Source: an uncultured Bacilli bacterium
GTDB lineage: Bacteria; Bacillota_I; Bacilli_A; RF39; UBA660
Direction: 5' to 3'
DNA length: 64,000 bases
NCBI GenBank assembly: GCA_934122275.1
Contig: CAKOWI010000003.1
Location: 29,952 to 93,951, forward strand
Below are positions 30,204 to 56,673 of the stretch, piece after piece. The notes under the pieces are model-generated. The model saw nothing but the letters and a program-made list of their open reading frames with translations, ran no database searches and had not been told where the DNA came from. Each line of letters opens with the position of its first letter. The stretch's first letter is position 1. Made by a program: the position numbers and the translations under genes.

Positions 30204-30313
30204 ATTAATCACCTATCCTAGTTAAATATTAACATGAGAACAAACACTAGTCAATATAAATAAACAGTTGTTAATCTATCTTATATTTGATACAATTTAT
30301 AAAGGTGATTGCT

Positions 30314-30995: not shown

Positions 30996-32066
30996 TTATT
31001 CATCTGTGTTAGTTAGATTTTTTGTATCAACATTATTAATTGCATCAAATCTCTTAGATATTTTATCAGTAGTAATATGAATATCATTAGCATCACGACT
31101 TACTGCATCAATACTTCTAGATAATTTATCCCATCTTTCTTTATATCTTTTAAAGTCAATCGATAATTTATTTAATTCTTCATGAATTACACTAGTATAT
31201 TTATCTTTTTCAATATTCTTAATAATTAATTCTATAGTAGTTAATGTACTCATTAAAGTAGTTGGAGATGCTATCCATACTCTTTTTTTATAAGCATATT
31301 CTATTATATCTGAATGATATGCATTTAGCTCTGCAAATATAGCTTCTGCTGGTAAAAACATTATAGCTTGATTACTTGTTACACCATCTATTATATATTT
31401 ATCTGCTATCGCATCTATGTGTTTTTTAACATCCATTTTAAACATTTTTTCAGCATTTTGTCTTTCTACTATACCAGCTTTTTTATCTATCATTAATCTA
31501 TAATTATCAAGTGGAAATTTTGAATCTATCGCTATAGTACCTAATGGTTCTGGTGCAAACAAAACACAATCAGCAATAACACCAGTATTAAATGTATATT
31601 GTAGTTTGTATATTTTATCATTATTATCACCAAATACACTAACTAAAATATGTTTTAAATTTACTTCACCAAATATACCTCTAGTTTTCTTATCTGTAAG
31701 AATAGATTGTAGTGAAATTATATCAGTAGACAAACTATCTATTTTCTTTTGAGCTTCATCTATTTTTGATAATCTTTCTAATACCGAAGTAAAAGTTTTA
31801 TTAGTTTTTTCAAAATTAACGTCTAATCTTTCATTAACATGATCATTTATTAAGTTTAATTTTTTTTCTATTCTATCATTTAACCTTTCAAAATCAGCAT
31901 TTAAATTATTATTTACGCCTTCTTTAAATTCACCAAGTTCTTTTATCATACTAGTTTCTAATCTTCCTAAACGCTCCGTAATATTGCTTTCATTTATGTT
32001 TTTAGATATAGAAAAGATAACTAATATTACTATCAAGATAAGTAATCCAATTATTATATATTCCAT
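30996..32066 (-). CDS. rmuC: DNA recombination protein RmuC
   Basis: N-terminal transmembrane segment, coiled coil, and a C-terminal nuclease-like core (IAIDSKFPL...MFLPAEAIF...VWIASPTTLM) typical of RmuC. Confidence 0.8.
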   Translation of the reverse strand: MEYIIIGLLILIVILVIFSISKNINESNITERLGRLETSMIKELGEFKEGVNNNLNADFERLNDRIEKKLNLINDHVNERLDVNFEKTNKTFTSVLERLSKIDEAQKKIDSLSTDIISLQSILTDKKTRGIFGEVNLKHILVSVFGDNNDKIYKLQYTFNTGVIADCVLFAPEPLGTIAIDSKFPLDNYRLMIDKKAGIVERQNAEKMFKMDVKKHIDAIADKYIIDGVTSNQAIMFLPAEAIFAELNAYHSDIIEYAYKKRVWIASPTTLMSTLTTIELIIKNIEKDKYTSVIHEELNKLSIDFKRYKERWDKLSRSIDAVSRDANDIHITTDKISKRFDAINNVDTKNLTNTDE

Positions 32067-32131: not shown

Positions 32132-32407
32132 TTACATATATTTCTTTATTTTTTCTATACCACCATTTATACTGTAGCAACTATAGCCCATAGCATTTAA
32201 AATTTTTGCACAAAATAAGCTAATTTCCCCTTTACTACAAATAAGATAATACGTTTTATTTTTATCTAAATATTTTTCTGGATTTTTAAGTAAAACTAAT
32301 CTTGGTATATTTGTTCCACTATTTAAATTAACTTTTTGATACTCACTTTTTGTTCTTACATCAATTATATTTTCTCTATCTTTAACATCACCAAATTCTA
32401 TTTGCAT
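32132..32407 (-). CDS. Rhodanese-like domain protein
   Basis: IDVRT..EY......G..NIP...YYLICSKGEIS matches the single-domain rhodanese pattern with an active-site Cys loop. Confidence 0.65.
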   Translation of the reverse strand: MQIEFGDVKDRENIIDVRTKSEYQKVNLNSGTNIPRLVLLKNPEKYLDKNKTYYLICSKGEISLFCAKILNAMGYSCYSINGGIEKIKKYM

Positions 32408-32428: not shown

Positions 32429-32459
32429 GAAAAAAAGTACTTTTTGAAAAGTACTTTTT
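32429..32459 (-). terminator. Terminator at the end of the coupling-protein gene
   Basis: AAAAAGTAC...GTACTTTTT (two copies of the palindrome AAAAGTACTTTT) followed by a U-run. It overlaps the TAA stop. Confidence 0.5.
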
Positions 32460-34803
32460 ACTCAAAGAAATCATCAAAAAGGTCTGAATCATCATCTTTT
32501 TCATTCATGATTTTATTAATCTCTTCTTTATTTGTATATATTTCTTCTTTCTTATTATCCTCTTTAGGAGGTTCCTTAGTTTCTGGTTTATTACTTTTTT
32601 CTTCTTTAGGTTCTATAACATCATCAGCTGATATATCTTCCATGAAATCATCCATCATGTCATAATCGTTAGAAACCGGTTTAACACTTGATTTATCATC
32701 AATTTTTATTTTATTACTAGATAACACAGAACTATTAGAAGATAATTCTTCTTTTGCAAGTTCATCCTTTAATTTATTATCTTCTTTTTCTTCATTTTCA
32801 AGTTCTTGTATTTTAGCATCAATCTTCTTTATTATACTATCTATGTCTAAATCGTCATCATCAGTATCACTAGCTGGTATATTAGAAATTCCACTTGTAC
32901 TTCCGCCAAAGGGATTAGGTGATGGAGCTGCATTTAAAAATGGATTTGAAGACTGATTACTACCACCAAAAGGATTAGATGGTCCAAACGGGTTTGCATT
33001 ATTTACAAACGGATTTCCACCGCCAAACGGGTTATTTCCGTTAAACATTTCATTTCTCTTTTCTTCCTTTTTCTTTTTAACAAATTCTCTTATGTCAAAC
33101 AACTTAATTGATCTTTGTTCATGAGTAGGAAGCTCTGCTTTTGGAATACTACTATTATTCTTTCCATAACCAAAATCGGTATTCCAAAATGGTAAAAATT
33201 TTGTTCTTAATGGTGGAAGACGATGTTTAAGTACCAATACTTCATCTTGCTTAAATCTTTGAAGTTCAGTAACAGTAATAAGCGGCCTTGTTTCTTCTTT
33301 CTTATCTTTACCAACCTTTACAATCTTATCACCACAAAGTTTACTAATTTCTTCAAGTGCTGACAATTCACCAGTAAGTAAATATAAAATGTTTCCACAG
33401 TTACCACGAATAGTTTCGGCATCTTCATTACCATAAACTTGCTTTAACTGTGCAAAGTTTTGAATTATCATGGTCATTCTTATTTGTCTCGAACGAGCTG
33501 CTGTAATCATTGTTGTAATATCTTTGAACTTTGGCATATTTGCAAACTCATCAAGTAAAAAGTTAGTTCTAATTGGAAGCTTACCACCATGTCTTTGTGC
33601 AACTGCAATCAGTGATTCATAACATTGCTTTACAAAGATTGTTGCAAGTGCATGATAAGTAGTTTTTTCATCTTGTATTATCATAAACACAGCAGTTTTT
33701 CTCTCACCTATCGTTTCCATATCAAAATCACTTCTTGATAGCATTTCTGATAAATTCCTTGTAACCGCAAATACCTTTATTTTTTGTTTTAAAACCGAAT
33801 CAATAGAGTTTTTAGTATCTTGTGGTGCATTTACTGTACCCAATGCATTAATTGCAGCAGGGCTTGCAGGATCTTTCATCTTAAAGTACTCTTTCATATA
33901 AGTTGAAGCTCCAACTTTTTCATCACCAACAGTCATCATTAAGTTTACAGTTGAAATACTTATCTCATCTTCTTTTGCATCCTCAAACATTCCAAGTGAA
34001 AGACCTGTTAAAAAGTCTGCAGCAGAATTAGTCCAGAATGGATCATTTGATTTTTCATCAGTTGCAATATTAATTGCCATATCGTTTAAAAGTTCATTTG
34101 CTTTGTCTTGATTACCTTCTTTATAATACTTATAAGGAAGTGTATATGGATTCCAGCAACTACCATTTTTAGGATCACGAAAATTAACAACTATTACATC
34201 ATATCCTAAGTTTTTTAACATTTCTCCATTTTTTTCATAGATTTCACCCTTAGGGTCAGTAATAACCATTGATTCACCCTTTTTAGCTAATAAATTAACT
34301 AATGGATTAATAACCATCTGAGTTTTACCAGAACCAGTAGCACCAATAACAAGTGAGTGTGCTTCACCATTATCTACATATACTAAGTTTTTCTTTTTAT
34401 CATAAACAAGAGGAAATCCAGCTGCTGTTGATTCTTTAGCACTTATTTCAACTGGTTCAACATCTTTAAACTTCTTATATTCATCTTCTTTAGCAAATCT
34501 ACCAAAACCCTCTTCTTTCTTTCCTTCAACAAAACCAATTCCCTTTTCAGTACTAAAAAAGTGACTTGAAACACTAGCAACTAAAGCTATTATTGAAACT
34601 ATCCAAAATAAAAGTGTATATTTTAACATTGGAGGAAAAAATGCCTGTACAAAATTAAAAGTAAACTTAAAATCTGAACCAACTTCATCATAAGTAAAAT
34701 GATAAAAATTATTCACACAAATAGCAATAACTACGAGCAACAAAAGACATGCCCATAAAAAAGCAACAACGTCTTTTTTCTCTGCCCTAAATTTTAATTT
34801 CAT
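32458..34803 (-). CDS. Type IV coupling protein (VirD4/TraG family) with a long NPF-repeat and acidic C-terminal tail
   Basis: N-terminal transmembrane segments, Walker A VIGATGSGKTQ, Walker B-like FLLDEFANM and RSRQIRMTMIIQNFAQL. The tail carries about 8 NPF motifs and then a D/E-rich end. Confidence 0.8.
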   Translation of the reverse strand: MKLKFRAEKKDVVAFLWACLLLLVVIAICVNNFYHFTYDEVGSDFKFTFNFVQAFFPPMLKYTLLFWIVSIIALVASVSSHFFSTEKGIGFVEGKKEEGFGRFAKEDEYKKFKDVEPVEISAKESTAAGFPLVYDKKKNLVYVDNGEAHSLVIGATGSGKTQMVINPLVNLLAKKGESMVITDPKGEIYEKNGEMLKNLGYDVIVVNFRDPKNGSCWNPYTLPYKYYKEGNQDKANELLNDMAINIATDEKSNDPFWTNSAADFLTGLSLGMFEDAKEDEISISTVNLMMTVGDEKVGASTYMKEYFKMKDPASPAAINALGTVNAPQDTKNSIDSVLKQKIKVFAVTRNLSEMLSRSDFDMETIGERKTAVFMIIQDEKTTYHALATIFVKQCYESLIAVAQRHGGKLPIRTNFLLDEFANMPKFKDITTMITAARSRQIRMTMIIQNFAQLKQVYGNEDAETIRGNCGNILYLLTGELSALEEISKLCGDKIVKVGKDKKEETRPLITVTELQRFKQDEVLVLKHRLPPLRTKFLPFWNTDFGYGKNNSSIPKAELPTHEQRSIKLFDIREFVKKKKEEKRNEMFNGNNPFGGGNPFVNNANPFGPSNPFGGSNQSSNPFLNAAPSPNPFGGSTSGISNIPASDTDDDDLDIDSIIKKIDAKIQELENEEKEDNKLKDELAKEELSSNSSVLSSNKIKIDDKSSVKPVSNDYDMMDDFMEDISADDVIEPKEEKSNKPETKEPPKEDNKKEEIYTNKEEINKIMNEKDDDSDLFDDFFE

Positions 34804-34864
34804 ATTAAGTCCTCCCTTTTTAAAGGTCTATTACAAGAGATATTATATCAAATATTTAATGTTT

Positions 34865-35590
34865 TTAATACTCTAATTTATTATTTTTATATTTATCATA
34901 TAAAACCTTGCCAACAATTACTATAACTAATGCCAAAATAACAAATATAAATATGTATGAATTGTTTTTAATCCCACTAATAACCTTGTTTTTATTTTCC
35001 TCTTTTTTTGCATTTTTTTCAAAATCATTTTTATTTATTTTTATATATAATCCCTTATCATCACTAGTTGTAGAATCAAACTTCCAAGTATAAGTTTTTT
35101 TATTAACACTATCTGCATTATTTTCTTCTGCATTTATAGGAAGCGTTAGGTTAAACTCTACCTTATCAAGAACAGGCCAAGTATTACAATCAGAACAGTA
35201 TGCAATATGACCTGTTTCATTTTTTATTTCATAATAATTTTCTGTTTCGGTACAACTAATATGTTTATATATATACTGACTAAAAACTGTTTTATTAATA
35301 AATTCACAAATATTATCAAAACTATTAGTTAGTACCACACTACCGTTTTCTTTTCCATATATTATACTACTTTTATACTTTCTAGTATCTAATGCATCTT
35401 TATAATACTTTAAAGTCATATTATATCTATTATTAAAATCACTTTCTGAAAGTCCAGAAGAAGGTGCTTTAAAAGTTACTTTTTCAGATACTTTTCCATC
35501 ATAATTAACTACAACATCAGATTTAACCGTACATCCAGATAAAATAATTAATAAAACTATAATACTAATTATGCATTTAATCTTTTTCAT
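34865..35590 (-). CDS. Lipoprotein with an additional C-terminal transmembrane anchor (paralogue 1)
   Basis: Lipobox LSGC. The C-terminal transmembrane segment and tail VLYDKYKNNKLEY are paralogous to the next gene, which also shares a TYTWKFD motif. Confidence 0.6.
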   Translation of the reverse strand: MKKIKCIISIIVLLIILSGCTVKSDVVVNYDGKVSEKVTFKAPSSGLSESDFNNRYNMTLKYYKDALDTRKYKSSIIYGKENGSVVLTNSFDNICEFINKTVFSQYIYKHISCTETENYYEIKNETGHIAYCSDCNTWPVLDKVEFNLTLPINAEENNADSVNKKTYTWKFDSTTSDDKGLYIKINKNDFEKNAKKEENKNKVISGIKNNSYIFIFVILALVIVIVGKVLYDKYKNNKLEY

Positions 35591-35601
35591 AGCAACCTCC
35601 T

Positions 35602-36285
35602 TTAATATTCCATCTTATTACTCTTATACTTATCATATAATATTTTACATATGAAAGCTATTACAAGTATTAATAAAACAATTATAGCAATCGATAACTT
35701 TGTATCCTTACTATTCTTATCACCTTTTTGTTTATCGATTGTCTTATTACTATATTTTTTAATCTTTAGTTCTAATTTACTTTCTTTTCCATCATCAAAC
35801 TTCCAAGTATATGTATTTTCATTTACTTCATTAGCATTACTTGAAACAGCTTTATCAGGAAGAGTTATATTTAAACTTAGGCTTTGTAATTCATTTTCAC
35901 CAGAACTTAAATACTTTGAACTAGCTACAACTTCATATGTATTATTTGATTCAGTACACGTTATATCATCAAAATAATCTTTAAATACAGATTCCTTAAA
36001 TAAGATACAAATATTATTATAACTATTAGAATATTTTCTCATTATGTTTTCGTTATCATCTAATATATCAACTTTGTAATTAGGAAGATTATTACTACCT
36101 AACTGAATCTCATATTCATCATTAACATATTTTGAAACACCATATCCTTCTAATTCAGCTATATTTTGTGAAAGTAAAACTTCTTCTGTTACAGAGTTAT
36201 TTTTATCAACATTTATATTTACATTTGCTGTGCATCCTGTAAAAAGGAAACATATAAGTAAAATAATTAAAGTTTTCTTTTTCAT
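35602..36285 (-). CDS. Lipoprotein with an additional C-terminal transmembrane anchor (paralogue 2)
   Basis: Lipobox FTGC; C-terminal transmembrane segment plus ILYDKYKSNKMEY; NTYTWKFDD motif. Confidence 0.6.
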   Translation of the reverse strand: MKKKTLIILLICFLFTGCTANVNINVDKNNSVTEEVLLSQNIAELEGYGVSKYVNDEYEIQLGSNNLPNYKVDILDDNENIMRKYSNSYNNICILFKESVFKDYFDDITCTESNNTYEVVASSKYLSSGENELQSLSLNITLPDKAVSSNANEVNENTYTWKFDDGKESKLELKIKKYSNKTIDKQKGDKNSKDTKLSIAIIVLLILVIAFICKILYDKYKSNKMEY

Positions 36286-36297
36286 AATATTCCCTTT

Positions 36298-39200
36298 CTA
36301 CTGTGTTTGACCAACATAAGATACATTTTTATTTATGTATAGTGTAGCATTCATAAGTCCAGCACCTTTATGTGACTTTGCATAATCTCTTGATGGTTTA
36401 TAAGGAGGATTTTGTAACTCTATATGTAGGTGTGGTCCAGAAGATGAACCGGTATTTCCAACTTTTCCAATTAATTGTCCTTTAGATATCTTATCACCCT
36501 CATTAACAAGTCTCTGACTAAAGTGAGCATAAAGTGTTTTATATCCATTACCATGATCTATTGTAACAAATATCCCGTAAGAATTATATCCCACGTCACA
36601 AATACCCATTCCATAGCAATTTGAAGAATAATCACCTACTTTTGATACTATACCACCATCCATAGCATAAACATTATTACCAGAAACCACATTATCTTTT
36701 TTATTCAAATCTACTGCACCATGATCCTTACCATACTGTCCTCCATTCTTACAGTAAAACGGAAAACAACTTGCATTACCAGAATTTGAAAAGTCTCGAG
36801 TTGTATCACTTGGATCTACTGGATTTCCTAAAAAACCAGTTGCACTTCCATCTCCTACACTACAATAATTTTTAACGATATCAGCTGATTTGTTACTTGT
36901 GAATAAGAAGAAACTTCTGCCATCTGTCATGTAATTTATTATTTCTTCTATATTTAAATAAGTAAAGTCAGGTCTTTCGTTATATTTATTATCCATAGGA
37001 TCTGCTATTATTAATTTACCATCTTGAGTTACTCCTTTTATTACTAAGTAATGGCCACTAGATCCTTTCCATCCAAGTCCAACACTTGCTATAACAAGTC
37101 CTCCAGAATTAAGTGTCTTCTTAACCTTTTCTTCTGCATCTTTAGCTGTTGCTAAAACAGAATCATATGTTAAACCGTGCTTATTTGCTGCATATTTTAA
37201 ATATCCAGGTGCAGTACCAGAAATTCCATCTCCACAGTATCCTGCTTGTCTTGCTTCCTCATTAGTATCAAGTGGTGTTGTACCTTCACCAGTTAAATTT
37301 GCTAAAACCATTGACATAGAAGTTACACCACATCCACTACTAGAAATAGATGAGTTATCACTTCTACCACAAAATGTTTGTTTATAACTTCTTTGTGAAT
37401 AATAAGTAAATTTATCTTCTGGTATTTCACAGCCTCCTACTGAACTTACTCCAACACAAGAACCTGATACTTTAGCTAGTGAACTAGTACTAGCATCATA
37501 TTCAGCAAATCTTGATTCACTATAAGCTCCATTTGTACCATATAAAATAGATTTATAATCCTCTCCTGATGAAGCTAAATTAGCTGCTTTAGTTTGTGAA
37601 AGACAAGAACCAACAGTACATGAACCAATTCCATAATCACTAGCATAACTACCACCAAAAGCTTCATTATCACTATCATAGATATATTCATCTTTTATCT
37701 CATCAAACCATTTTTCATAATTTGCCAATCTTTCTGCAGGTAATTTAGGTTTATTACTACAACCATCATACACATCACAGTAAACTTGATCATTGGTACT
37801 AGATGCCATATGAAAAACTATTTTATCTCCATAATCATCGTATTTTCTACCCATTCCAACAATTCCCGGAACACTACTACCACTTTGAGTTCTACCTAAT
37901 GTAAAACTCTTTGCAGCAATCATTTGTGCTTTTACGTATGCTTCAACATCTGAATCAATTTCTGCATATGTAACACCCATAATATAATCTTTAAAAGACA
38001 ATTCTGATTTGTAAATATCACTAGGAGATAAACTACTGCTATTATACACAGTTACATACATTTCATTTCTTATTAAGTTTCCTCCATCTGAATAGCCTAA
38101 ACTAGTAGATGCAGTAGAACATATTATATTTGTATACACATATTCTAAAAATAAATCCTTTTTCGCATATAATTCTTCTATTATAGCATCTGCAAATTCA
38201 TCTCTTAACTCATTTTTAACAGAGTCAAACATTTCTTTATATCCGTTATATGCTTCAAAAGAATCATCAAATCCAGAATATCCTTTATCTTTTTTAAAGT
38301 AGTTATCTTTAAGATATTCTTTAAATTGTTCTTCAGTAGAACCATTTAGCTCTTTCAAGATTTTTTTCAATTTTCTTCTAATCTTACTTTTTCTAAGTGG
38401 CTGAAGATACATATCATTTTCCTCTTTATCATTTGCATCGTCATCAACATCTTCGGTATCATTATCAGCATCAATCTCTTCAGTATCATCATCAATATCT
38501 ATCGGTGTTTCATCTGTTGCATCCTTTTCTAAATAACTTAAAACATTTCCATCATGTAACGTACCAAAATAAGGATACAAAACCGTTATCATTGCAAGAG
38601 AACCATCAGCATTAGGATACTTTGCAAAAAGTTTTCTCATCTTTTGAAGCGTTTTTTGGTCTGCTTTTGAATAATTGCTTGTATTATCACTATCATTTAC
38701 ATCACCACCAGGACCTGGTTGAAGTGTTACTATAATAAATATTATTACTAATGTAACTATAAGTATAGCTAATACTGCAACAACAATATACCAGTAATTA
38801 ACAACAAATTCAATAATTTTTTGGATTGCTTTAACCGTTTTTTTAGCCTTATCAACTTTATCTTTAACATTATTAACTGCTTGACCTGTCTTTGTTTTAT
38901 TTGCAGCTTGTTTAGCTAAATTTTTTGGATTTGCTTTATTTTTAATCCTATCTTTTAAACTTCCCTTATTATCAGAATTATTATTGTTATTATTTCTATT
39001 TCTATTATTTTCTTGCTTATTTTTAGCTTCTTGCCTTTTTTCATCTGAACTAGATTTTGGTTTTTTGTTATCTTTTTGATTATTTTTATCACTTTTGTTA
39101 TTTTTTTGATTATCATGATTGCTTTTAGGATTTTCTTGTGGTTTATTTTCTTGTGGCTGATTTTTATTTCCATCATTATTTTTTTCTTGATTTTCATTAT

Positions 39201-39798
39201 TTTTGTTAGAATTTTCTCCATTTTTATTCTCATCTTTTTTATCAGAATTTTTCCCATCCTGATTTTCATCTTTTTTATCAAGGTTTTCTTTATCTCGATT
39301 CTCATCTTTTTTATCAGGATTTTTCTCATCCTCATTCTCATCTTTTTTATCAAGGTTTTCTTTATCTTGATTCTCATCTTTTTTATCAGGATTTTCCTCA
39401 TCTTGATTCTCATCTTTTTTATCAGGATTTTCCTCATCTTGATTCTCATCTTTTTTATCAAGGTTTTCTTCACCTTGATTTTCATCATTTTCGTTACTTT
39501 TAGTTTCATTTTTGATGGAATCTGCTATTTCTTGGTCATTATTATCTGACAAATCTTCCATATAATCATCTAGAACACTTTCACTTTCTTCAGTATTTGA
39601 AGATGGTAATTCTTCAAATTTAATATCTGCTTTACCAGATATTTTTACATTTGTTGGTTCAACTTCTATATCTTTTATTTCAAATTCTATTTCATCGTTC
39701 CCACTTTTATTTTCTGCATTAGTATTATTTACATTATTCTTACTAGCATTTTCAACATTACTCTTTTTTTCATTATTGTATCTATCGTTTGTATTCAT
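36298..39798 (-). CDS. Giant T4SS-associated cell-wall hydrolase: acidic repeat region, transmembrane segment, SpoIID/LytB-like domain, C39-like/papain-like cysteine peptidase domain, and M23 metallopeptidase domain
   Basis: Transmembrane segment IVVAVLAILIVTLVIIFIIVTL. YIMGVTYAEIDSDVEAYVKAQMIAAKSFTL is SpoIID-like. SSSGCGVTSMSMVLANL...GHYLVIKG is C39-like. DHGAVDL...GYKTLYAHFS...GNTGSSSGPHLHIELQ matches the M23 HxxxD and HxH motifs. Confidence 0.7.
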   Translation of the reverse strand: MNTNDRYNNEKKSNVENASKNNVNNTNAENKSGNDEIEFEIKDIEVEPTNVKISGKADIKFEELPSSNTEESESVLDDYMEDLSDNNDQEIADSIKNETKSNENDENQGEENLDKKDENQDEENPDKKDENQDEENPDKKDENQDKENLDKKDENEDEKNPDKKDENRDKENLDKKDENQDGKNSDKKDENKNGENSNKNNENQEKNNDGNKNQPQENKPQENPKSNHDNQKNNKSDKNNQKDNKKPKSSSDEKRQEAKNKQENNRNRNNNNNNSDNKGSLKDRIKNKANPKNLAKQAANKTKTGQAVNNVKDKVDKAKKTVKAIQKIIEFVVNYWYIVVAVLAILIVTLVIIFIIVTLQPGPGGDVNDSDNTSNYSKADQKTLQKMRKLFAKYPNADGSLAMITVLYPYFGTLHDGNVLSYLEKDATDETPIDIDDDTEEIDADNDTEDVDDDANDKEENDMYLQPLRKSKIRRKLKKILKELNGSTEEQFKEYLKDNYFKKDKGYSGFDDSFEAYNGYKEMFDSVKNELRDEFADAIIEELYAKKDLFLEYVYTNIICSTASTSLGYSDGGNLIRNEMYVTVYNSSSLSPSDIYKSELSFKDYIMGVTYAEIDSDVEAYVKAQMIAAKSFTLGRTQSGSSVPGIVGMGRKYDDYGDKIVFHMASSTNDQVYCDVYDGCSNKPKLPAERLANYEKWFDEIKDEYIYDSDNEAFGGSYASDYGIGSCTVGSCLSQTKAANLASSGEDYKSILYGTNGAYSESRFAEYDASTSSLAKVSGSCVGVSSVGGCEIPEDKFTYYSQRSYKQTFCGRSDNSSISSSGCGVTSMSMVLANLTGEGTTPLDTNEEARQAGYCGDGISGTAPGYLKYAANKHGLTYDSVLATAKDAEEKVKKTLNSGGLVIASVGLGWKGSSGHYLVIKGVTQDGKLIIADPMDNKYNERPDFTYLNIEEIINYMTDGRSFFLFTSNKSADIVKNYCSVGDGSATGFLGNPVDPSDTTRDFSNSGNASCFPFYCKNGGQYGKDHGAVDLNKKDNVVSGNNVYAMDGGIVSKVGDYSSNCYGMGICDVGYNSYGIFVTIDHGNGYKTLYAHFSQRLVNEGDKISKGQLIGKVGNTGSSSGPHLHIELQNPPYKPSRDYAKSHKGAGLMNATLYINKNVSYVGQTQ
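39211..39489. repeat. In-frame 36-bp tandem repeat, about 8 copies, encoding DKKDENQDEENP-type units
   Basis: The unit ctcatcttttttatcaggattttcctcatcttgatt recurs, with two adjacent perfect copies around 39370-39441. It encodes aa ~104-196 of the hydrolase. Confidence 0.85.
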
Positions 39799-39871
39799 AT
39801 CAGCACCACCAAAACTTTAGTATTAACATAATCATATTGTAACAAATTTTTTAACATTTAACAATATCAGT

Positions 39872-39902
39872 GAAAAATAAAAAGACGGATTTCCCGTCTT
39901 TT
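39872..39902 (-). terminator. Intrinsic terminator between VirB4 and the hydrolase gene
   Basis: AAAGACGG-GAAAT-CCGTCTTT followed by TTTATTTTT on the minus strand. Confidence 0.65.
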
Positions 39903-39905
39903 ATA

Positions 39906-41702
39906 TTATAATCCACCACCAGATCCAAATGAATCTAGTTCTGCTTCTGTAACAGTTACATCAACACGCATTCTTCTACTTCCACAAACTAATAGAGCTT
40001 CACCTTGATTGTACTTTTTAATACTTTCTTTTTCTTGTTCATTAAGGTCTATTAATTTTGCTAAATCTTCAGCACCTTGCTTTTTAAGACCCATAACTAA
40101 GTAATACGAAGCATTATCAAAAATTGCTTTGCCCTGTGTTATTACTGATGGTTCAGCAAAGTCACTTGGCTGTTGTGTAATTATTAAAGTACCACTGTTG
40201 TACTTTCTAGCACGTCTTTGAATTTGTGCTAAAAAGTCAGCACCTATAGTATTATTACCAGAAAGTAAAATATGAGCTTCATCTACCATTAATACTGTAT
40301 TTGTAGAGCGATCTAAGCAATGACTCCATGCATACTTTAATATATTAAAGAATAAAGCATTTCTAATATTTTCATCTGCATTCATCAAATCCCTAATATT
40401 AAATACTATAAATTTAGACATAGGTTTTATAGTTGTATGATTATCAAAATAATACTTTAACTCTTTTGTAAGCGGTCTTATTTTAAGTTCTAGTTTTTCT
40501 AATATATCTCTTTCATGAGTTATTTGATCACCAAATGCCTCAAGTCTTCTAACTAAAGTTTCATAAAGGTCAGAAAATGTTGGATATTCATTAGAACTTA
40601 AATTTGAAAAATCTGTTTCAAAAGATATACCAAAACGTTGATAAGTTAATTGTGCCATTTCACTAAACATAGTTAATACATCTTCGGTAATGGTTGGATC
40701 ATAATATTTCATAAATGCTTTTAAGAACTGTAATGTTTTAGTTAAAACAGTATATCCCAAACCATTTCTTAATTCTTCCTCATCAGCTTCTAATATAACT
40801 TCAAGTGGATTTATCATGCCAAATTCTCCGCCTTTACCAAGGTCAATAAAGTCTCCACCCATTCTAGATGCCATTTCCTCTAATTCACCTTCAGGATCTA
40901 TTACAACTGTCTTATAACCATTTCTTATATAGTTTCTAACAAGTAATTTAGCCGCTGTTGATTTACCACTACCTGTAGTACCAAGTATGATCATATTAGC
41001 ATTATTTCTATTAAACTCTTTTCTTATTTGATATAAGAATTGATTAAATAATATAACACCACCAGAGAAATCTGTTCCAAGAAGACAAGATGGACCTGGA
41101 TCCTTTAAGCTGTCAAAGATAAATGGATACATTGCCGCTATTGTAGGAGATGCAATTGGTGTACCTATTTGATCTTCTATATCTTGCTTTGGAAATAATG
41201 GAATTATAGATTTAAGTACTTTTCTTTGTTCAAATCTTAATGGAATTGCTCTAATTTCCATAGTTGATAAAAAGTTTTTAACTTGTAGTTTCTTTTGATT
41301 TAGTTCCTCTTTACTATCAGCTGAAACAACTAAATGCATTTGAAAATCAAATATTTTAGATTGATTAGTTGTAATCATTTGAATAAAATCATTTAATGAT
41401 TCAGAATCCTGTCTTATCTGTTCTTGAGCTGTTTTATCATTTTCCTTTTCATATTGAGCTTTTAAATCCGCTAATTGTTTATTAAGCATCTTAGTCATTA
41501 CATCAAAAGGAAGAGGAATATGTTTAATAACTACTTTTACACCAGGTGTACTGGTTATATCAGAAAGAAAACCTGGACTTATCCACTTTGGATAAGAAAC
41601 CACAGTTAGTATAGTACACCATTTATCACTAATTATAAACTCTGAAGGCTTAAATTCTAACCCTTTAGGTGCTAATTCTTTTTTTATACTAATATTTCCC
41701 AT
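39906..41702 (-). CDS. VirB4/TraE-family conjugal ATPase, ATPase portion of a split gene
   Basis: Walker A ILGTTGSGKSTAAKLL, Walker B VLMVDEAHILL, and GTLIITQQPSDF. The start ATG shares one nt with the upstream stop (TAATG). Confidence 0.8.
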   Translation of the reverse strand: MGNISIKKELAPKGLEFKPSEFIISDKWCTILTVVSYPKWISPGFLSDITSTPGVKVVIKHIPLPFDVMTKMLNKQLADLKAQYEKENDKTAQEQIRQDSESLNDFIQMITTNQSKIFDFQMHLVVSADSKEELNQKKLQVKNFLSTMEIRAIPLRFEQRKVLKSIIPLFPKQDIEDQIGTPIASPTIAAMYPFIFDSLKDPGPSCLLGTDFSGGVILFNQFLYQIRKEFNRNNANMIILGTTGSGKSTAAKLLVRNYIRNGYKTVVIDPEGELEEMASRMGGDFIDLGKGGEFGMINPLEVILEADEEELRNGLGYTVLTKTLQFLKAFMKYYDPTITEDVLTMFSEMAQLTYQRFGISFETDFSNLSSNEYPTFSDLYETLVRRLEAFGDQITHERDILEKLELKIRPLTKELKYYFDNHTTIKPMSKFIVFNIRDLMNADENIRNALFFNILKYAWSHCLDRSTNTVLMVDEAHILLSGNNTIGADFLAQIQRRARKYNSGTLIITQQPSDFAEPSVITQGKAIFDNASYYLVMGLKKQGAEDLAKLIDLNEQEKESIKKYNQGEALLVCGSRRMRVDVTVTEAELDSFGSGGGL

Positions 41703-42241
41703 TATGATAACACCGTCCCAAATTCAGTTTTTTTACCCCCGTTTAAGAAATTATCTAATATACTTCTTAAATCACCATCATTAGCTTGACTGCCCACCAT
41801 ACCAGCATTAGCAAGCCCACTTATTATAAGTCTTAACTTCTTTTGAATCATATCAACACTTTTGTCCCTAAATAGAAAATAGAATTCTATATCAGATACA
41901 TTATCACTAAAGTCCTCAGCCTTATTTAAATCTTGATTTATTAGTTTTCTTCTTACTGGATCATTTATTTGATTATACATCATCTGCATCTCTGCTATAT
42001 AAACTGATATATCAACTGGTCTGTCTGCAATAACAAGCCAGAATTCAAAAGTAAGCGAGTTATATAAATCCTTAAGTCCATCAATTACTCTAAATTGATC
42101 GTTTTCATCCATAATGAATATATTCTTTGGTGCAACTTTTACTCCTGCAACCTTATATCCATTATCAAGCTCTATCATGCTATTTGCTATATTCCTTATA
42201 GGAACAAAACTTTCTGTTGTTACTCTATTCGTTGTACTCAT
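41702..42241 (-). CDS. VirB4 N-terminal domain encoded as a separate ORF
   Basis: FVPIRNIANSMIELDNGYKVAGVKVAPKNIF...FWLVIADRPVDIS resembles the N-terminal region of Gram-positive VirB4 homologues (Tn916 Orf16, TcpF, PrgJ) as I recall them. The combined length of 777 aa is typical of full-length VirB4. Confidence 0.55.
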   Translation of the reverse strand: MSTTNRVTTESFVPIRNIANSMIELDNGYKVAGVKVAPKNIFIMDENDQFRVIDGLKDLYNSLTFEFWLVIADRPVDISVYIAEMQMMYNQINDPVRRKLINQDLNKAEDFSDNVSDIEFYFLFRDKSVDMIQKKLRLIISGLANAGMVGSQANDGDLRSILDNFLNGGKKTEFGTVLS

Positions 42242-42542
42242 CTTTTACACGCCATCCTTTCCATACTAATTCATTTTTATCCTTCATATAAAAATTATAT
42301 ATATTTTGTAATATGCATAACACATTATGATAATTGGGTATCGGTAAAACAAGAAATGCACTTATTAAGATAGGCAGTAAAACAATTACACCAAGAACCA
42401 TTGAAGATGGTTGAAATATTAAAAATAGTATAAATGTAACTAATGAACCAACCGATAAAATTATTAAATCAATAGGTCTAAAGGCACTAAATATAAGCTG
42501 TCCTTTTTTAGTATTTGCTGCAATTAAATATTGATTATTCAC
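42225..42542 (-). CDS. PrgI/TcpE-like (VirB3-like) small membrane protein
   Basis: 105 aa with two transmembrane helices, immediately upstream of and overlapping VirB4-N. The position and topology match VirB3 analogues. Confidence 0.5.
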   Translation of the reverse strand: MNNQYLIAANTKKGQLIFSAFRPIDLIILSVGSLVTFILFLIFQPSSMVLGVIVLLPILISAFLVLPIPNYHNVLCILQNIYNFYMKDKNELVWKGWRVKDEYNE

Positions 42543-42558
42543 TTATATCATCCCCTTT

Positions 42559-45147
42559 TTATTTTTTTTCTTCTTTTTCTTCTATACTTTTAATTTTATC
42601 ATCAATTTTTTTAGCAGAAATAGCTAATTGATTAACCTTATCAGCTAGAGTGCCTCCTGGAAGCTTATCAATTACTAGTTTCAATTCTTTTTGCGCATCA
42701 TTAATTTCAGTTATAACTTGTATATTTTCCGTCATAGTTGAATAAAATTGTTGTTCTTCATCAGATATTTTTGTAGCTTCATCCTTGTCTAACAATTCTC
42801 CACTTGTACTATCTGCATATTCTTTAGCATTTTTTTCCATTTTTTCTAATTGATCAATTTGTCTTTCTAGTGTTGCTTTTTCTTCGTCACTTGCAATAGC
42901 CATTCTTTTTGTCGCATCTGAAATAGCATTTTCAATATTCTTTATATTTTGAGATATGCTATCACCTATCGATAAATTAACAAGTGCAGAACCAAAATCA
43001 AATCCACTCATAGCTTGCATCAAACCGTTTCTAATATTTAACGAACTCAAACTTTCATCACTAATATTTTGTTTTGCAGCATTATATGCTGACACAGCTT
43101 GCTGCATAGTATCATTATTTTGACTATAATTATTAATTGCAGTTGTTTGGTAAGAGTTAATAAGTTTTTCTTGATTTTGCATAGCAGAAGAATCTCTGTT
43201 AAATATTCCACCGCAATCTTTTGATATGCTCTCACCAGTAACAGTTTTTCCGTTATCAAACTTTACATTTTCTATTTTACCATCGCTTGTAAGAGAAATC
43301 CCACTCGCAGATAGTCCAGAAATTTTTCCATTTTCTAACTTTATCATTCCCTGATTTAATCCGTACTGAACAGCACCAAAAGTATCGTTATTTATATCTA
43401 TTTTAGATTTAGTCATAGCATCCATTATCTTATTTGCATCGCCTTGTCCAGCAACAACCTTTCCTTGCCCTATTCCGACTTCTTGAATTCCATAATTTCC
43501 GCCTTTGGTCCAACTTTCAACCTTTTTCTGCTTATTAATTGCATCCCTCTTATCGGCCAAAGAAGATGGTGTACCATATACATTTTCCATTGCTCCGGGC
43601 AATCTCATTATTTTTGCTAGTGCTCTATCATAAATACCATTTTTATTATTCATTCCTACTCTGCCAGCAAAATTATCAGTAGCAGTTTTTGCCGCGTTTA
43701 AGGCTCCTTTTATATTATCCGCTTTAAAGCCTAAACTAGCTGAGTTTATAATACCGGAAGCCGTGGACGCAAGCAATCTTTTAGCATTTGAACGATTTGA
43801 TATACCAGCATCACCATATGCTTCTTTTCTCGCTTCATTCAAATGTTTTCTCTGATTAAAATAGCCCTTGATACCACTAGCACCGTCGGTACTATATGAT
43901 TGTCTTGCTTTACGAGTATGCTGAAGATTTTCATTTTTATCTCTTACTGCCTTTTTCTCAGCACGTCTATTCTTATTCTCGTTGATGAATCCTCGAACCC
44001 CACCAGCTCCAGCAGCTGCGGCTGTATTTGCCACCTTATGTCCAACTTTTGTTAAGGCTCCTCCTATTAAGGCAGCAGAACCTAATTTCTTACCAATTCC
44101 TAAGCCACCTAAACCAGCATCAATTCCTATTAATTTTCCAATCCACTCTGGTGCTTTTTTTGCGAAAATAAGAATAGATATTAATACAGTTAACTTTCCT
44201 ATACCTTTTTCATACCATTCGGAGAAATTAATTTTAGGTATAAGACTAATGAGCAAAAGGGTTAAGGAAATGATTGCTAATTTTATAAATAAACTAGCAT
44301 AAGTTTTTAAGGTTGTAGTTACCCAGTTTTTAAATGGTCCAGATTTAGCTGATTTTGGATCTACATATGTTGCAATAAATAATGGTGCTACAATTTGAAG
44401 AACTGCTAGCTCAACAGTTCTAATACCTATATCAATCGCAAAACTAAATAATATATACGTTAAGAAAATTCCAACCACAAACGTAAGCATCGCTTTATAA
44501 ATATACACAAATTCTTTTTCGCCATTTACCGTTTCTTGTACAGAGGCATATTTTGCAAGAGAAGTCATCTTAAATCCGCCATTTTCAGGGTCATCTTCAC
44601 CAGTCATTGTTTTTCCAGCCGCCATGTTTTCATAAGCGGTTTTTGCATCTTGACATTTACCAGAACAAGATGTTATATTTTCATTCCAAGTAATTAAAGC
44701 TCCTATTGCAATGCTTTGCATGGCTCTACCCGGATTAGTCTTTTCTAAAGTTTCAGTATTCAAAAATAGCCTATCCACGACATGATTTTTTACTATAAGT
44801 GCTTGAATGTCATAAGCTTTTTCAAACACTTTTGGAACTGCTATTAGCATAGCAAACATAATTAATATATTTATTCCGACGTTTGCTATTCCATTTCCTT
44901 TTTCTGTTAACTTATCCGGATTAATCATAGCATTGACCAAAATAATGGCAACCCTAAAAAACGCAAATAATCCCATGACAACATATAAATTTTTCATAAC
45001 TGTCTCTATAGTATCTGTACTAAACAACGGATTTTTTGCCATATCATTAATTAAATTGTATGCATTATCAACTAAACCAAAAACTACAGAATCTAAGGCC
45101 ATCCCAATCGTTCTTAATATACCAATAAAATTTATTAATATTTCCAT
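42559..45147 (-). CDS. VirB6-like polytopic membrane protein with a long C-terminal Gly/Ala-rich and coiled-coil extension
   Basis: About 6-7 transmembrane segments in the first ~380 aa, then GAALIGGALTKVGHKVANTAAAAGAGGV and a soluble ~450-aa tail. The position equals Tn916 Orf15, TcpH or PrgH. Confidence 0.55.
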   Translation of the reverse strand: MEILINFIGILRTIGMALDSVVFGLVDNAYNLINDMAKNPLFSTDTIETVMKNLYVVMGLFAFFRVAIILVNAMINPDKLTEKGNGIANVGINILIMFAMLIAVPKVFEKAYDIQALIVKNHVVDRLFLNTETLEKTNPGRAMQSIAIGALITWNENITSCSGKCQDAKTAYENMAAGKTMTGEDDPENGGFKMTSLAKYASVQETVNGEKEFVYIYKAMLTFVVGIFLTYILFSFAIDIGIRTVELAVLQIVAPLFIATYVDPKSAKSGPFKNWVTTTLKTYASLFIKLAIISLTLLLISLIPKINFSEWYEKGIGKLTVLISILIFAKKAPEWIGKLIGIDAGLGGLGIGKKLGSAALIGGALTKVGHKVANTAAAAGAGGVRGFINENKNRRAEKKAVRDKNENLQHTRKARQSYSTDGASGIKGYFNQRKHLNEARKEAYGDAGISNRSNAKRLLASTASGIINSASLGFKADNIKGALNAAKTATDNFAGRVGMNNKNGIYDRALAKIMRLPGAMENVYGTPSSLADKRDAINKQKKVESWTKGGNYGIQEVGIGQGKVVAGQGDANKIMDAMTKSKIDINNDTFGAVQYGLNQGMIKLENGKISGLSASGISLTSDGKIENVKFDNGKTVTGESISKDCGGIFNRDSSAMQNQEKLINSYQTTAINNYSQNNDTMQQAVSAYNAAKQNISDESLSSLNIRNGLMQAMSGFDFGSALVNLSIGDSISQNIKNIENAISDATKRMAIASDEEKATLERQIDQLEKMEKNAKEYADSTSGELLDKDEATKISDEEQQFYSTMTENIQVITEINDAQKELKLVIDKLPGGTLADKVNQLAISAKKIDDKIKSIEEKEEKK

Positions 45148-45156
45148 ATAATCCTC

Positions 45157-45930
45157 CTAAAAACAAAGTGAATCTTCTAGACCAAACCATGTAAAGATTA
45201 TTCTTATAAGTAGTGGTAAATACATTAGTATGCAAAGTGCTATTACTCTTTTAATAAAATTTACACTGCTTTTCTTAATAGCATCACTATCATTGTTTCC
45301 TACTGCTTTTACAAAATCAATAGTTCCCATAACCATTACTAATATTGGTGTTAATAATATAAGATATCCCCATAATTCTTTTACTATTTCTCTAATTGAA
45401 TCATCACATGCAAGATTCTTGGTAGGTGTAAGATTTCCCATAGAACTAGTATTTCCACCAGAAGAACTAGAAGAATTTGATGATTTTACATTAGCCGCGT
45501 CAGTTTGAACATCTATTATTTCCGGAGTTATATCATCAATCTTAGTTTTCTTTATATCAGATGCATTAACGGTTATACTTTTAGTATTATTTCTGTCAAC
45601 TTCTAATTCAAAAATCACATTTCCATAGGTTCCAAAATCAGAACTACTTAAACTTTTACTGCACGTTGTACCATCATTATTAGTAATTAAATAATCTATT
45701 GTATGAACAGTACTAGTTTTTCTTGCTCTAACATCAATTTTATAAATTAAAGTGCTATCAGTACTTTTTTCCTTATCAACTTTCTGTTCTATATTACCAC
45801 CAAAATCTGTATTATTACCGTGATCAGATAAAGTATATTTTCCACACTCATCAGCTTTAACACCTGCTATTCCAACCAAAAAAGGAATAATAAGTAAAAG
45901 CATAAACAATAATTTTTTAACTTTTCTCAT
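45157..45930 (-). CDS. Secreted protein with a C-terminal VirB2/pilin-like two-helix domain (large paralogue)
   Basis: Signal peptide, beta-rich domain, Ser-rich linker, then PILVMVMGTIDFVKAVGNNDSDAIKKSSVNFIKRVIALCILMYLPLL, which aligns with the 108-aa protein. ATG at 45930 after an AAAGGATGA RBS. Confidence 0.55.
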   Translation of the reverse strand: MRKVKKLLFMLLLIIPFLVGIAGVKADECGKYTLSDHGNNTDFGGNIEQKVDKEKSTDSTLIYKIDVRARKTSTVHTIDYLITNNDGTTCSKSLSSSDFGTYGNVIFELEVDRNNTKSITVNASDIKKTKIDDITPEIIDVQTDAANVKSSNSSSSSGGNTSSMGNLTPTKNLACDDSIREIVKELWGYLILLTPILVMVMGTIDFVKAVGNNDSDAIKKSSVNFIKRVIALCILMYLPLLIRIIFTWFGLEDSLCF

Positions 45931-46013
45931 AATAAATATCATCCTTTAAACAAATTTTAACTATTATCATAATAAGAATAACATTTTTTTGTAAAAATTA
46001 AAACCCTTTTTAT

Positions 46014-46044
46014 CAAATAAAAAAAGAAACTAATCTTAGTTTCT
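46014..46044 (-). terminator. Intrinsic terminator directly after the small pilin-like gene
   Basis: AGAAACTAA-GA-TTAGTTTCT followed by TTTTTTT on the minus strand. Confidence 0.6.
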
Positions 46045-46049
46045 ATTTA

Positions 46050-46376
46050 CTATTGAAGTTTGCTACTAAAAATATTACTTATATCAGATGATGTACTATT
46101 CCAACATTCTTTCCATTCATCATTACCAATCCATCCCATTACTATTGAAACTATAAGTGGAACGGCAAAAACTATAACAGCAGCTATTACTCTTTTTATT
46201 AAAACTTTCTGATTTTTCTTTATATCTTCTTCTTTACCAGCAATGACAGCTTTAACCAAGTCAATTGTTCCTAATACTATAAGAATAATTGGAACAACCC
46301 ATTGAATTATTTTAAGTATAAATTTTACTATAGCAACAACATCGCCTAACCCTTCACAATCAGCAAGTACGAACAT
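46050..46376 (-). CDS. Small VirB2/TrbC-like (pilin-like) two-helix membrane protein
   Basis: PIILIVLGTIDLVKAVIAGKEEDIKKNQKVLIKRVIAAVIVFAVPLIV forms a hydrophobic helix, a charged loop and a second hydrophobic helix. GGAGGAG RBS, first gene of the cluster. Confidence 0.55.
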   Translation of the reverse strand: MFVLADCEGLGDVVAIVKFILKIIQWVVPIILIVLGTIDLVKAVIAGKEEDIKKNQKVLIKRVIAAVIVFAVPLIVSIVMGWIGNDEWKECWNSTSSDISNIFSSKLQ

Positions 46377-46402: not shown

Positions 46403-46431
46403 ATTCTAAAACATTTTTACGTCTTTGTCAA
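46403..46431 (-). promoter_or_regulatory. Near-consensus promoter for the small pilin-like gene (TTGACA-17-TAGAAT)
   Basis: Read on the minus strand: TTGACAaagacgtaaaaatgtttTAGAAT. Confidence 0.55.
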
Positions 46432-55110: not shown

Positions 55111-55161
55111 AACTATTACCAAATATTTTGTCAAAAAAGAAAAACAGCACTATGCTGTTTA
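55111..55161. repeat. 51-bp direct repeat, copy 2; it contains the stop codon and terminator of the cohesin-like gene
   Basis: See copy 1. On the minus strand the hairpin AAACAGCA-TAG-TGCTGTTT is followed by TTTCTTTTTT. Confidence 0.9.
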
Positions 55162-56664: not shown

Positions 56665-56673
56665 TTCTACCTC

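Follow-up and report, generated by a model that had tools for sequence, protein, structure and literature searches.

Gene content and layout of the cluster

This analysis concerns a cluster of ten genes in a 64,000-nt stretch of DNA (the window) from an uncultured Bacilli bacterium of the GTDB order RF39, family UBA660 (assembly GCA_934122275.1, contig CAKOWI010000003.1, positions 29,952 to 93,951). The window is part of a 148.9 kb contig from a Hadza human-gut metagenome; our view covered ~84 kb of this genome (the window and 10 kb beyond each end) and ~20 kb per relative. An earlier note, made from the letters of the window, had proposed ten co-oriented genes of type IV secretion type lying among housekeeping genes. 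All ten open reading frames (ORFs) were located on the minus strand, head to tail from position 46376 to 32458, and hidden Markov model (HMM) searches supported their identities as parts of a type IV secretion system (T4SS). As judged from sequence, the cluster is a complete monoderm T4SS of conjugation type, similar to the mating-pair-formation class MPF-FATA. All features described in this section lie on the minus strand.

The VirB4 ATPase (C-terminal part, 598 aa, 39906..41702) was recognised by AAA_10, P-loop_TraG and NCBIfam VirB4 models and aligned to PDB entry 4AG5 (E = 9e-58), and both its Walker A (GTTGSGKST) and Walker B (MVDEAH) motifs could be read intact in the sequence. It is preceded by a TrsD/TraC-like protein of 179 aa (41702..42241), representing the N-terminal domain of VirB4 as a gene of its own; this protein matched positions 100–280 of NF045975 (E = 3e-14) and carries a precomputed assignment to the TraC-like family PF26593. 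TrsD is known as a homologue of the VirB4 N-terminus (PMC12102498). The best NCBIfam model for VirB4 was the same NF045975 (Mbov_0397 VirB4), scoring 365 bits with the C part and 52 bits with the N part against a cut-off of 590. The earlier note had VirB4 in two ORFs, which is correct, but the arrangement is a natural one and not a frameshift or damage. The possibility of a frameshifted VirB4 was rejected on the basis of the 179 + 598 aa split, in which the stop codon of the first gene and the start codon of the second overlap by one base (TAATG), and of its conservation in 79 of 79 related loci carrying both parts as well as in an outgroup, the integrative and conjugative element (ICE) of Thomasclavelia ramosa.

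The second ATPase, a VirD4-type coupling protein of 781 aa (32458..34803), scored 320 bits with NF045973 (CD1115-family type IV coupling protein), above the cut-off of 250, and matched PF02534 (T4SS-DNA_transf, E = 4e-58) as well as TrwB_AAD_bind and TraG-D_C (PF10412, PF12696). Two N-terminal transmembrane (TM) helices are followed by Walker A (GATGSGKTQ) and Walker B (LLDEFAN) motifs, an all-alpha domain and a tail. The C-terminal ~220 aa (32458-33150) are of low complexity, with repeated NPF(G) motifs and then a very acidic stretch, and most of the length variation among relatives (709–843 aa) falls in this tail, which could act as a docking region for substrates or partners. Among loci with enough downstream sequence, VirD4 was found in the operon in 54 of 57.

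The presumed surface fibre is represented by two genes. The small VirB2-like T4SS pilin (108 aa, 46050..46376) reached 25.4 bits with PF18895 (T4SS_pilin), just below the cut-off of 26.6; the assignment draws on family-wide matches, as 48 of 75 members of the small-pilin family match PF18895 (best E = 1.7e-8). It has two long hydrophobic helices and two nearly invariant cysteines, and its AlphaFold2 (AF2) model is a helical hairpin (pLDDT 81) for which Foldseek returned no significant match, an outcome expected for a helical hairpin and uninformative either way. The second protein, a 261-aa pilin fusion (45157..45942), had been listed in the earlier note as a large pilin-like gene. Given 45% identity to the small pilin over its C-terminal ~60 residues (58 aa aligned, E = 5e-14), it is a VirB2-like hairpin with an extra N-terminal domain; the N-terminal end consists of a signal or TM segment and a domain of ~165 aa without a family match. 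The fusion protein is only 21–38% identical between species. Other RF39 loci carry two to four divergent pilin paralogues, compared with one free pilin and one fusion in the window.

Next in order lies an extended VirB6/TrbL-like polytopic membrane protein (862 aa, 42559..45147) with at least six predicted TM helices, which scored 38 bits with PF19597 (TrbL_4; cut-off 27) and gave weak matches to Mbov_0396 (32.8 bits, cut-off 70) and MMCAP2_0566. It is followed by a small membrane protein of 105 aa with two TM helices (42225..42542), whose gene overlaps the next by 17 nt. The size, topology and position of this protein agree with the PrgI/VirB3-like label of the earlier note; profile support is slight, the window protein itself giving no match to PF12666 (PrgI) and 5 of ~46 homologues matching weakly (best E = 8e-4). 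VirB3-like and TrsD-like genes were nevertheless present in 56 of 56 loci, and a pilin in 54 of 56.

Downstream of VirB4 lies a cell-wall hydrolase of 1166 aa (36298..39798), combining a Peptidase_M23 domain (E = 6e-22, HxxxD and HxH motifs present) with a C39-like cysteine peptidase (E = 1.5e-11), both located behind a single TM helix (residues 338–356). Two of the three domains announced in the earlier note were thereby recovered. For the third, a lytic-transglycosylase-like domain is weakly suggested by a SpoIID/LytB match (E = 0.006), and a PDB sequence search with the hydrolase ectodomain returned M23 relatives only, none for this domain. The N-terminus of the hydrolase is of low complexity and includes at least nine tandem 36-nt repeats (39085-39552) encoding KKDENQDEENPD-type 12-aa repeats, which fall in the presumably cytoplasmic N-terminal region.

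Two paralogous lipoproteins, whose genes have DNA repeats in common, complete the set. Both have a lipobox cysteine and a C-terminal TM helix; lipoprotein 1 (227 aa, 35602..36285) shows a weak LppM match, and lipoprotein 2 (241 aa, 34865..35590) is predicted to adopt an LppM-like fold, as its AF2 model (pLDDT 84) had Mycobacterium tuberculosis LppM (2nc8) as its best Foldseek match (E = 1e-6). Lipoprotein 2 was also considered as a VirB8-like component and rejected in that role, the modelled fold being that of LppM and not VirB8/NTF2.

Chromosomal setting, inheritance and selection

To one side of the cluster lie genes for NrdDG, dUTPase, ThrRS, DnaB/DnaI-like replication proteins, a Mur ligase, ScpA/ScpB, RmuC and a rhodanese, and to the other those for thioredoxin, UppS, wall glycosyltransferases, an LCP protein and LtaS, in agreement with the housekeeping neighbourhood reported in the earlier note. 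Core genes continue beyond the window (RecA, LigA and PGM past one end; DnaE, RNase III, SMC and FtsW past the other), and both flanks are co-oriented with the cluster. The immediate 3' neighbours, both identified by Pfam and both on the minus strand, are a single-domain rhodanese (91 aa, 32132..32407) and RmuC (356 aa with an N-terminal TM helix, 30996..32066).

Pfam scans were applied to 59 window ORFs (a selection of the listed ORFs of at least 90 aa plus one 85-aa ORF, excluding nested ORFs on the opposite strand). Among these 59 no relaxase, tyrosine or serine recombinase, DDE transposase, single-stranded DNA-binding protein (SSB), primase or partition gene was detected. No mobility genes were found in the 10 kb beyond either end of the window, no direct repeats bracketed the cluster beyond AT-rich chance matches, and no oriT-like repeat was seen. 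The same scanning method does detect the recombinase of the T. ramosa ICE, an ordinary ICE next to core genes that served as a positive control. What the earlier note had said of missing mobility genes and missing flanking repeats therefore stands, for mobility genes also past both edges of the window.

VirB4 homologues numbered more than 7000 in the protein collection, the best 120 of which were nearly all 598 aa long and 84–100% identical to the query. A scan of one genome per species gave at least 543 stretches encoding a relative, and the best 80 of these were compared as loci. All 80 came from metagenome-assembled genomes of uncultured gut 'Bacilli', 'Mollicutes' or 'Tenericutes' (VirB4 70–91% identical), including Ca. 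Aphodocola, 'Bacillales bacterium UBA660' and 'Acholeplasma sp. CAG:878'. From their record titles, we take the latter two to belong, probably, to the RF39 family UBA660. Ca. Aphodocola is placed in RF39 family CAG-433 (PMC8035907) and UBA660 is likewise a family of RF39 (PMC13155120), so that two families of the order, CAG-433 and probably UBA660, are covered.

Across these best 80 loci the gene order was constant and co-oriented: pilin(s), pilin fusion, VirB6, VirB3-like, TrsD-like, VirB4, hydrolase, lipoprotein(s) and VirD4. The rhodanese followed VirD4 in 38 of 43 loci and RmuC lay downstream in 34 of 43, in some of them after a variable insert. In the closer group (VirB4 83–91% identical) the upstream flank of thioredoxin, UppS and glycosyltransferase was also common; outside it, the flanks were other core genes (RNase R, acetate kinase, pyruvate kinase, SRP54, GyrB, IF-2 and others). 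Non-conserved flank ORFs of the 80 loci were scanned as 125 cluster representatives; the 25 families listed, of 144, were almost all housekeeping and included no relaxase, SSB or primase. The constant order and usual downstream flank are not those of a recent insertion in relatives. Of the features that mark an ICE, we found no linked relaxase, no integrase, recombinase or transposase and no att repeats or insertion into a target gene over the ~84 kb, and no variable presence or position among the 80 loci.

An ordinary ICE, or the remnant of one that decayed recently, with its integrase, relaxase and att sites outside the region examined, would be one explanation. The genes are homologous to ICE conjugation modules, and the GC content of the cluster (29–34%) exceeds that of its flanks (24–25%) and of the window as a whole (~25%). 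Against this stand the same position and order in dozens of species with core proteins 10–30% divergent, the intact ORFs, the low ratios of non-synonymous to synonymous substitution (dN/dS) of the ATPases (0.06–0.15), the lack of bracketing repeats and of mobility genes in the ~84 kb, and the core genes that flank the cluster in its own orientation. Higher GC was also considered as a sign of recent import and rejected: an excess of 2–4 points recurs in nearly all species, and cluster GC rises and falls with that of each host genome. The ICE explanation is already contradicted, and we give it next to no probability. Simple decay, which the earlier note had doubted from the intact large ORFs, is likewise at odds with these dN/dS values.

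In Mantel tests VirB4 was correlated with VirD4 (r = 0.94, p = 0.001), RmuC (r = 0.83, p = 0.001), a DUF2238 protein (r = 0.80, p = 0.001), UppS (r = 0.65, p = 0.001, n = 15) and GT4a (r = 0.49, p = 0.002, n = 11). Of the compared proteins VirB4 diverged slowest, with a mean distance of 0.11 versus 0.21 for UppS. Between-species dN/dS, approximate because dS was saturated, was 0.06–0.09 for VirB4 and 0.11–0.15 for VirD4, compared with 0.04–0.07 for RmuC and 0.09–0.16 for UppS. On this comparative evidence the cluster is a vertically inherited chromosomal T4SS of RF39, long part of the chromosome and not an ICE, which to all appearances has lost every element-mobility function and become a core organelle of the order. 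Since it occupies the same place in dozens of species and its VirB4 is more conserved than neighbouring core genes, it probably does something central to RF39 life. The central proposal of the earlier note, a complete Gram-positive-type T4SS without mobility functions and possibly a domesticated ICE core, is strengthened by its retention under purifying selection across at least 80 species-level genomes.

Constraint is unevenly distributed over the cluster. Between species with VirB4 84–91% identical, the pilin fusion, VirB6, hydrolase and lipoproteins are ~25–45% identical. Variation is also visible within a species: a conspecific strain (L002) has 98.5% nucleotide identity to the window over 12.7 kb, an identical VirB4 and flanking genes at 98.5–100%, but the C-terminal ~490 aa of VirB6 (42570-44049) have no detectable nucleotide or protein similarity to the corresponding L002:1900-3375 (BLASTP E = 0.09), and the adjacent segment 44049-45957, spanning the pilin fusion and the N-terminal part of VirB6, is 88% identical in nucleotides. 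The VirB6 C-terminal domain looks like a swapped hypervariable cassette. Judged from these identities and ratios, the motors are under purifying selection and the surface parts under relaxed or diversifying selection.

The RF39 clade of VirB4 is, by sequence, an isolated one. Clustering at 50% identity left a single full-length RF39 representative (71% identical to the query), followed by sequences at 44% and 42% and then at 34% or less; the best plasmid VirB4 was ~31% and the best phage sequence ~26% identical. The nearest named relatives belong to Erysipelotrichales (Thomasclavelia, Solobacterium, Erysipelotrichaceae), along with one Mycoplasmatota plasmid. The two nearest full-length relatives from outside RF39 are P0164 (44%) and P0313 (GCA_016648615.1, ~42%). 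P0313 has a separate gene for the TraC-like N-domain and is directly followed by RelA/SpoT, UvrD and NUDIX genes; a chromosomal version of the system may thus exist in a further lineage.

An additional conserved and co-oriented gene set was seen directly upstream of the T4SS pilin genes in UBA660-type RF39 loci (L031-L085; for example L039:1-4580, L060:2-1393 and L066:397-1299). It includes an ATPase of the T2SSE family, an RcpC/CpaB-like protein and five protein families that match nothing in Pfam (~300, 261 and 335 aa, and two of ~149 aa), and looks like a Tad/Flp-type pilus locus by its gene content. This set is absent at the corresponding position in the window.

Kinship to known systems and possible function

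The ICE of T. ramosa (L086-L088) carries the nearest named VirB4 relative (34% identity) and has the same core order: a membrane protein (704 aa), a small protein (121 aa), a TrsD-like protein (225 aa) that overlaps VirB4 (606 aa), and a wall hydrolase. Its further genes encode an SSB, a Toprim primase, a serine recombinase of the large type and SpaA pili that depend on sortase. All of these are missing from the RF39 cluster, where VirB2-like pilins take the place of SpaA pili. Similarities to the MPF-FATA systems of pGO1 and pIP501 include a separate TrsD (a homologue of the VirB4 N-terminus) followed by TrsE/VirB4, a multi-domain VirB1-type hydrolase, a type IV coupling protein and a VirB6-like protein. 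Those systems differ in being plasmid-borne, in having a relaxase, topoisomerase and VirB8-like proteins, and in having no pilins; the best plasmid VirB4 is ~30% identical.

The earlier note had likened the gene order (pilin-like gene, polytopic membrane protein, ATPase) to that of the conjugation module of mycoplasma ICEs. This holds insofar as Mbov_0397 is the best-scoring curated VirB4 family (365 bits), accompanied by weak Mbov_0396 and MAG4940 matches, and insofar as both systems combine a minimal monoderm channel and surface lipoproteins with the lack of a recognised relaxase; the mycoplasma ICEA/ICEB module consists of CDS5 (VirD4), CDS17 (VirB4), CDS16 (VirB6-like) and CDS14 (lipoprotein). 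However, the scores lie under the family cut-offs (365 versus 590 for VirB4), and the nearest sequences come from Erysipelotrichales ICEs. VirB4 is split in RF39 but fused in mycoplasma ICEs, and the RF39 cluster has a wall hydrolase and pilins and lacks the DDE transposase (CDS22). It is also fixed, unlike the mobile mycoplasma ICEs, which occur in multiple copies at random sites.

One reading of the function is that of a host-owned conjugation apparatus moving chromosomal DNA or mobilisable elements between RF39 cells. It would either manage with no linked relaxase, in the manner of chromosomal transfer in mycoplasmas, or use one whose gene lies elsewhere. Not only are the nearest sequence relatives ICE conjugation systems and the best curated VirB4 model that of a mycoplasma ICE, but VirD4 exceeds the threshold set for a conjugal-transfer family and retains both the TrwB all-alpha domain, which binds DNA, and the TraG-D_C domain. 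Chromosomal DNA is moved through the channels of mycoplasma ICEs, for which no relaxase is identified to date (PMC12857230, PMC6030558), the surface lipoproteins resemble in this respect CDS14, a protein indispensable to mating in mycoplasmas (PMC6030558), and the usual downstream neighbour of the cluster, RmuC, is a recombination protein. Variable genes between the rhodanese and RmuC, however, argue against a tight operon with the latter, and neither the ~84 kb nor the flank families listed yielded a relaxase, oriT-like repeat, SSB or primase. Order-wide retention at housekeeping-level constraint is also generally unusual for conjugation genes. Conjugation is in our estimation a serious candidate, although on the whole a rather unlikely one.

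In architecture, the closest analogues are the chromosomal, pilin-bearing and relaxase-less T4SS of Patescibacteria and the rvh system of Rickettsiales. The rvh system is fixed in the chromosomes of a genome-reduced and host-dependent order, is not known to have a relaxase, keeps VirD4, and has an extended VirB6 with large variable hydrophilic domains along with multiple divergent VirB2 paralogues. It delivers effectors, known or presumed, to eukaryotic host cells; it differs from the RF39 cluster in being a diderm MPF-T system with VirB7-B10 and scattered gene islands, and sequence kinship is not known to go beyond the universal ATPases.

Patescibacteria (the candidate phyla radiation, CPR; for example Ca. 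Southlakia epibionticum) are, like RF39, monoderm, genome-reduced and largely uncultured hosts (PMC12102498; PMC12857230). Their T4SS, like the RF39 cluster, is chromosomal and lineage-wide, has no linked relaxase, and is composed of TrsD-like and VirB4 proteins, a PrgI/VirB3-like protein, VirB6 and PF18895 VirB2-like pilins, often in arrays of divergent paralogues, and virB4 is followed by a peptidase or lysozyme. According to a 2025 review of T4SSs, no monoderm systems other than those of Patescibacteria have VirB2-like pilins and are required for growth of the bacterium itself (PMC12857230). There are differences: the RF39 host is a true member of Bacillota with a wall and LCP/LtaS genes, and VirD4 lies inside the RF39 operon, while in CPR it is mostly encoded elsewhere and was non-essential in one tested strain. 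As the host belongs to Bacilli it is taxonomically outside Patescibacteria, and the likeness is one of architecture and genomic status. A full-text search of the literature, covering work outside subscription journals, returned no paper describing a T4SS in RF39.

How the system would be assembled, in which direction it would transport and what kind of substrate it would carry we infer from its parts. The VirB2-like pilins, one with its extra N-terminal domain, would form a surface fibre which, together with the lipoproteins, would contact another cell; the wall hydrolase would open the peptidoglycan; VirB6, the VirB3-like protein and the TrsD-like/VirB4 ATPase pair would form the membrane channel; and VirD4 would select a cytoplasmic substrate and feed it outward. 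The retention of VirD4 in the operon and its co-evolution with VirB4 point to export of a cytoplasmic substrate as opposed to a pilus-only or uptake-only function.

The earlier note had named several possible roles and settled on none. Our preferred reading is that protein or some other macromolecular cargo is handed on contact to a partner cell, be it a bacterium or a host cell, and we put its probability at roughly 45%. Systems that are lineage-fixed, relaxase-less and equipped with VirD4, such as rvh of Rickettsiales, Bartonella VirB/D4, Dot/Icm and the Xanthomonadales killing system, are known as effector translocators, which is one reason for this preference. The other is that the T4SS of Patescibacteria, the closest analogue in architecture, is essential for epibiotic growth (PMC12102498, PMC12857230). 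Cargo delivery would support a dependent lifestyle.

Several observations weigh against cargo delivery or the ground on which it stands. No substrate, effector or recognition signal was identified, and VirD4 belongs to a conjugative family (CD1115) with a DNA-binding all-alpha domain, making DNA an equally natural cargo. No VirB8-like part (the NTF2-fold PrgL, TraM and TcpC) was found, lipoprotein 2 being the sole candidate modelled. The relaxase scans cover only the ~84 kb of this genome and ~20 kb per relative, and the VirB4 scan, with one genome per species, scores presence in RF39 and cannot score absence. Finally, of the comparators used in the Mantel tests, RmuC is itself linked to the cluster, and the samples for UppS and GT4a are the smaller ones (n = 15 and 11).

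Export is not the only conceivable direction. In a lineage unable to make nucleotides, the system might be a DNA-uptake or nucleotide-scavenging device similar to ComB or Ced; RF39 is indeed reported to be without de novo synthesis of nucleotides or nucleic acids (PMC13155120), T4SS loci of the Patescibacteria class ABY1 adjoin comF, recG and radA, and RmuC and PD-(D/E)XK nucleases adjoin the RF39 cluster. Uptake is made less likely by the fact that systems of the ComB type are not known to have VirD4, which in RF39 is part of the operon in the great majority of loci (54/57, as above). Matches to Ced proteins were far below the cut-offs, CedB being matched at the P-loop only and CedD reaching 49 bits versus a cut-off of 600. 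Moreover, loss of ComEC in Saccharibacteria left viability unaffected (PMC12857230), which indicates that the T4SS of these bacteria is essential for some reason other than the supply of nucleotides by ComEC-dependent natural transformation. We regard uptake as very unlikely.

A further reading would make the RF39 T4SS an indispensable organelle for living off other cells, and so a second case of the strategy known from Patescibacteria, independent or homologous, within Bacillota. This we consider doubtful. If it were true, partner specificity would be determined by the VirB2-like pili together with the hypervariable domain of VirB6, and the cluster would point to a co-culture partner needed for the growth of RF39. 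The conjugation modules of Erysipelotrichales and mycoplasma ICEs may in that case be linked with the CPR T4SS through the RF39 system or an ancestor of it.

The order RF39 is abundant in human and animal guts, genome-reduced and uncultured, and dependence on a partner reached through the T4SS offers a hypothesis for its resistance to cultivation. A Patescibacteria-like architecture (TrsD-like protein plus VirB4, PrgI-like protein, VirB6 and PF18895 pilins, chromosomal and with no relaxase found) is here fixed in an order of Bacillota. The cluster is a naturally occurring example of a core organelle made from an ICE conjugation module, and a still-mobile cousin is available for comparison. The rapidly diversifying pilins, VirB6 C-domain, hydrolase and lipoproteins could mark partner or host specificity at the strain level.

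Neighbouring genes and minor features

The rhodanese downstream of VirD4 (32132-32407) retains an apparent active-site cysteine and, at 33–63% identity, evolves much faster than RmuC. Variable inserts were noted between the rhodanese and RmuC or near the cluster (L039:20034-20927, L007:1161-2171, L023:17907-18863 and L031:17187-17774), two of them being a YhcG/DUF1016 PD-(D/E)XK nuclease; the rhodanese–RmuC site may be permissive for small inserts. RmuC was considered as a stand-in for a relaxase, an idea that was not adopted because RmuC is a widespread core gene and is separated from the cluster by variable inserts in several species.

Two possible regulatory elements were identified on the minus strand by pattern alone. 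Just 5' of the first pilin gene lies a promoter-like site, TTGACA-17-TAGAAT (46403..46431), agreeing with the consensus at 11 of 12 positions; such sites were no commoner in the region than in shuffled sequence. A terminator-like hairpin (39880..39902) between the VirB4 and hydrolase genes is a possible attenuator.

Further along the flank, between the gene for an RNHCP protein and scpA, a Tyr/Asn/Lys-rich protein of 409 aa (28983-30212) has one N-terminal hydrophobic segment and no family match. In L011 and L016 scpA follows the RNHCP gene with no detectable homologue of the 409-aa protein in between, and the protein may be a variable surface protein. An N-terminal type IV pilin methylation motif was seen in the proteins encoded at 1809-2768 and 16363-18135, one of which has DUF285/LRR repeats typical of Mollicutes-related surface proteins, and the protein encoded at 60257-60943 gave a sub-threshold match only to the archaeal type IV pilin N-terminal domain. 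The motifs suggest that substrates of a type IV pilus or pseudopilus are also encoded in this genome. Lastly, a KilA-N domain protein (53983-54861) is encoded among the wall-glycosylation genes, adjoined by genes for two large secreted proteins (55159-58431), of which one carries a cadherin-like domain and the other a dockerin domain.

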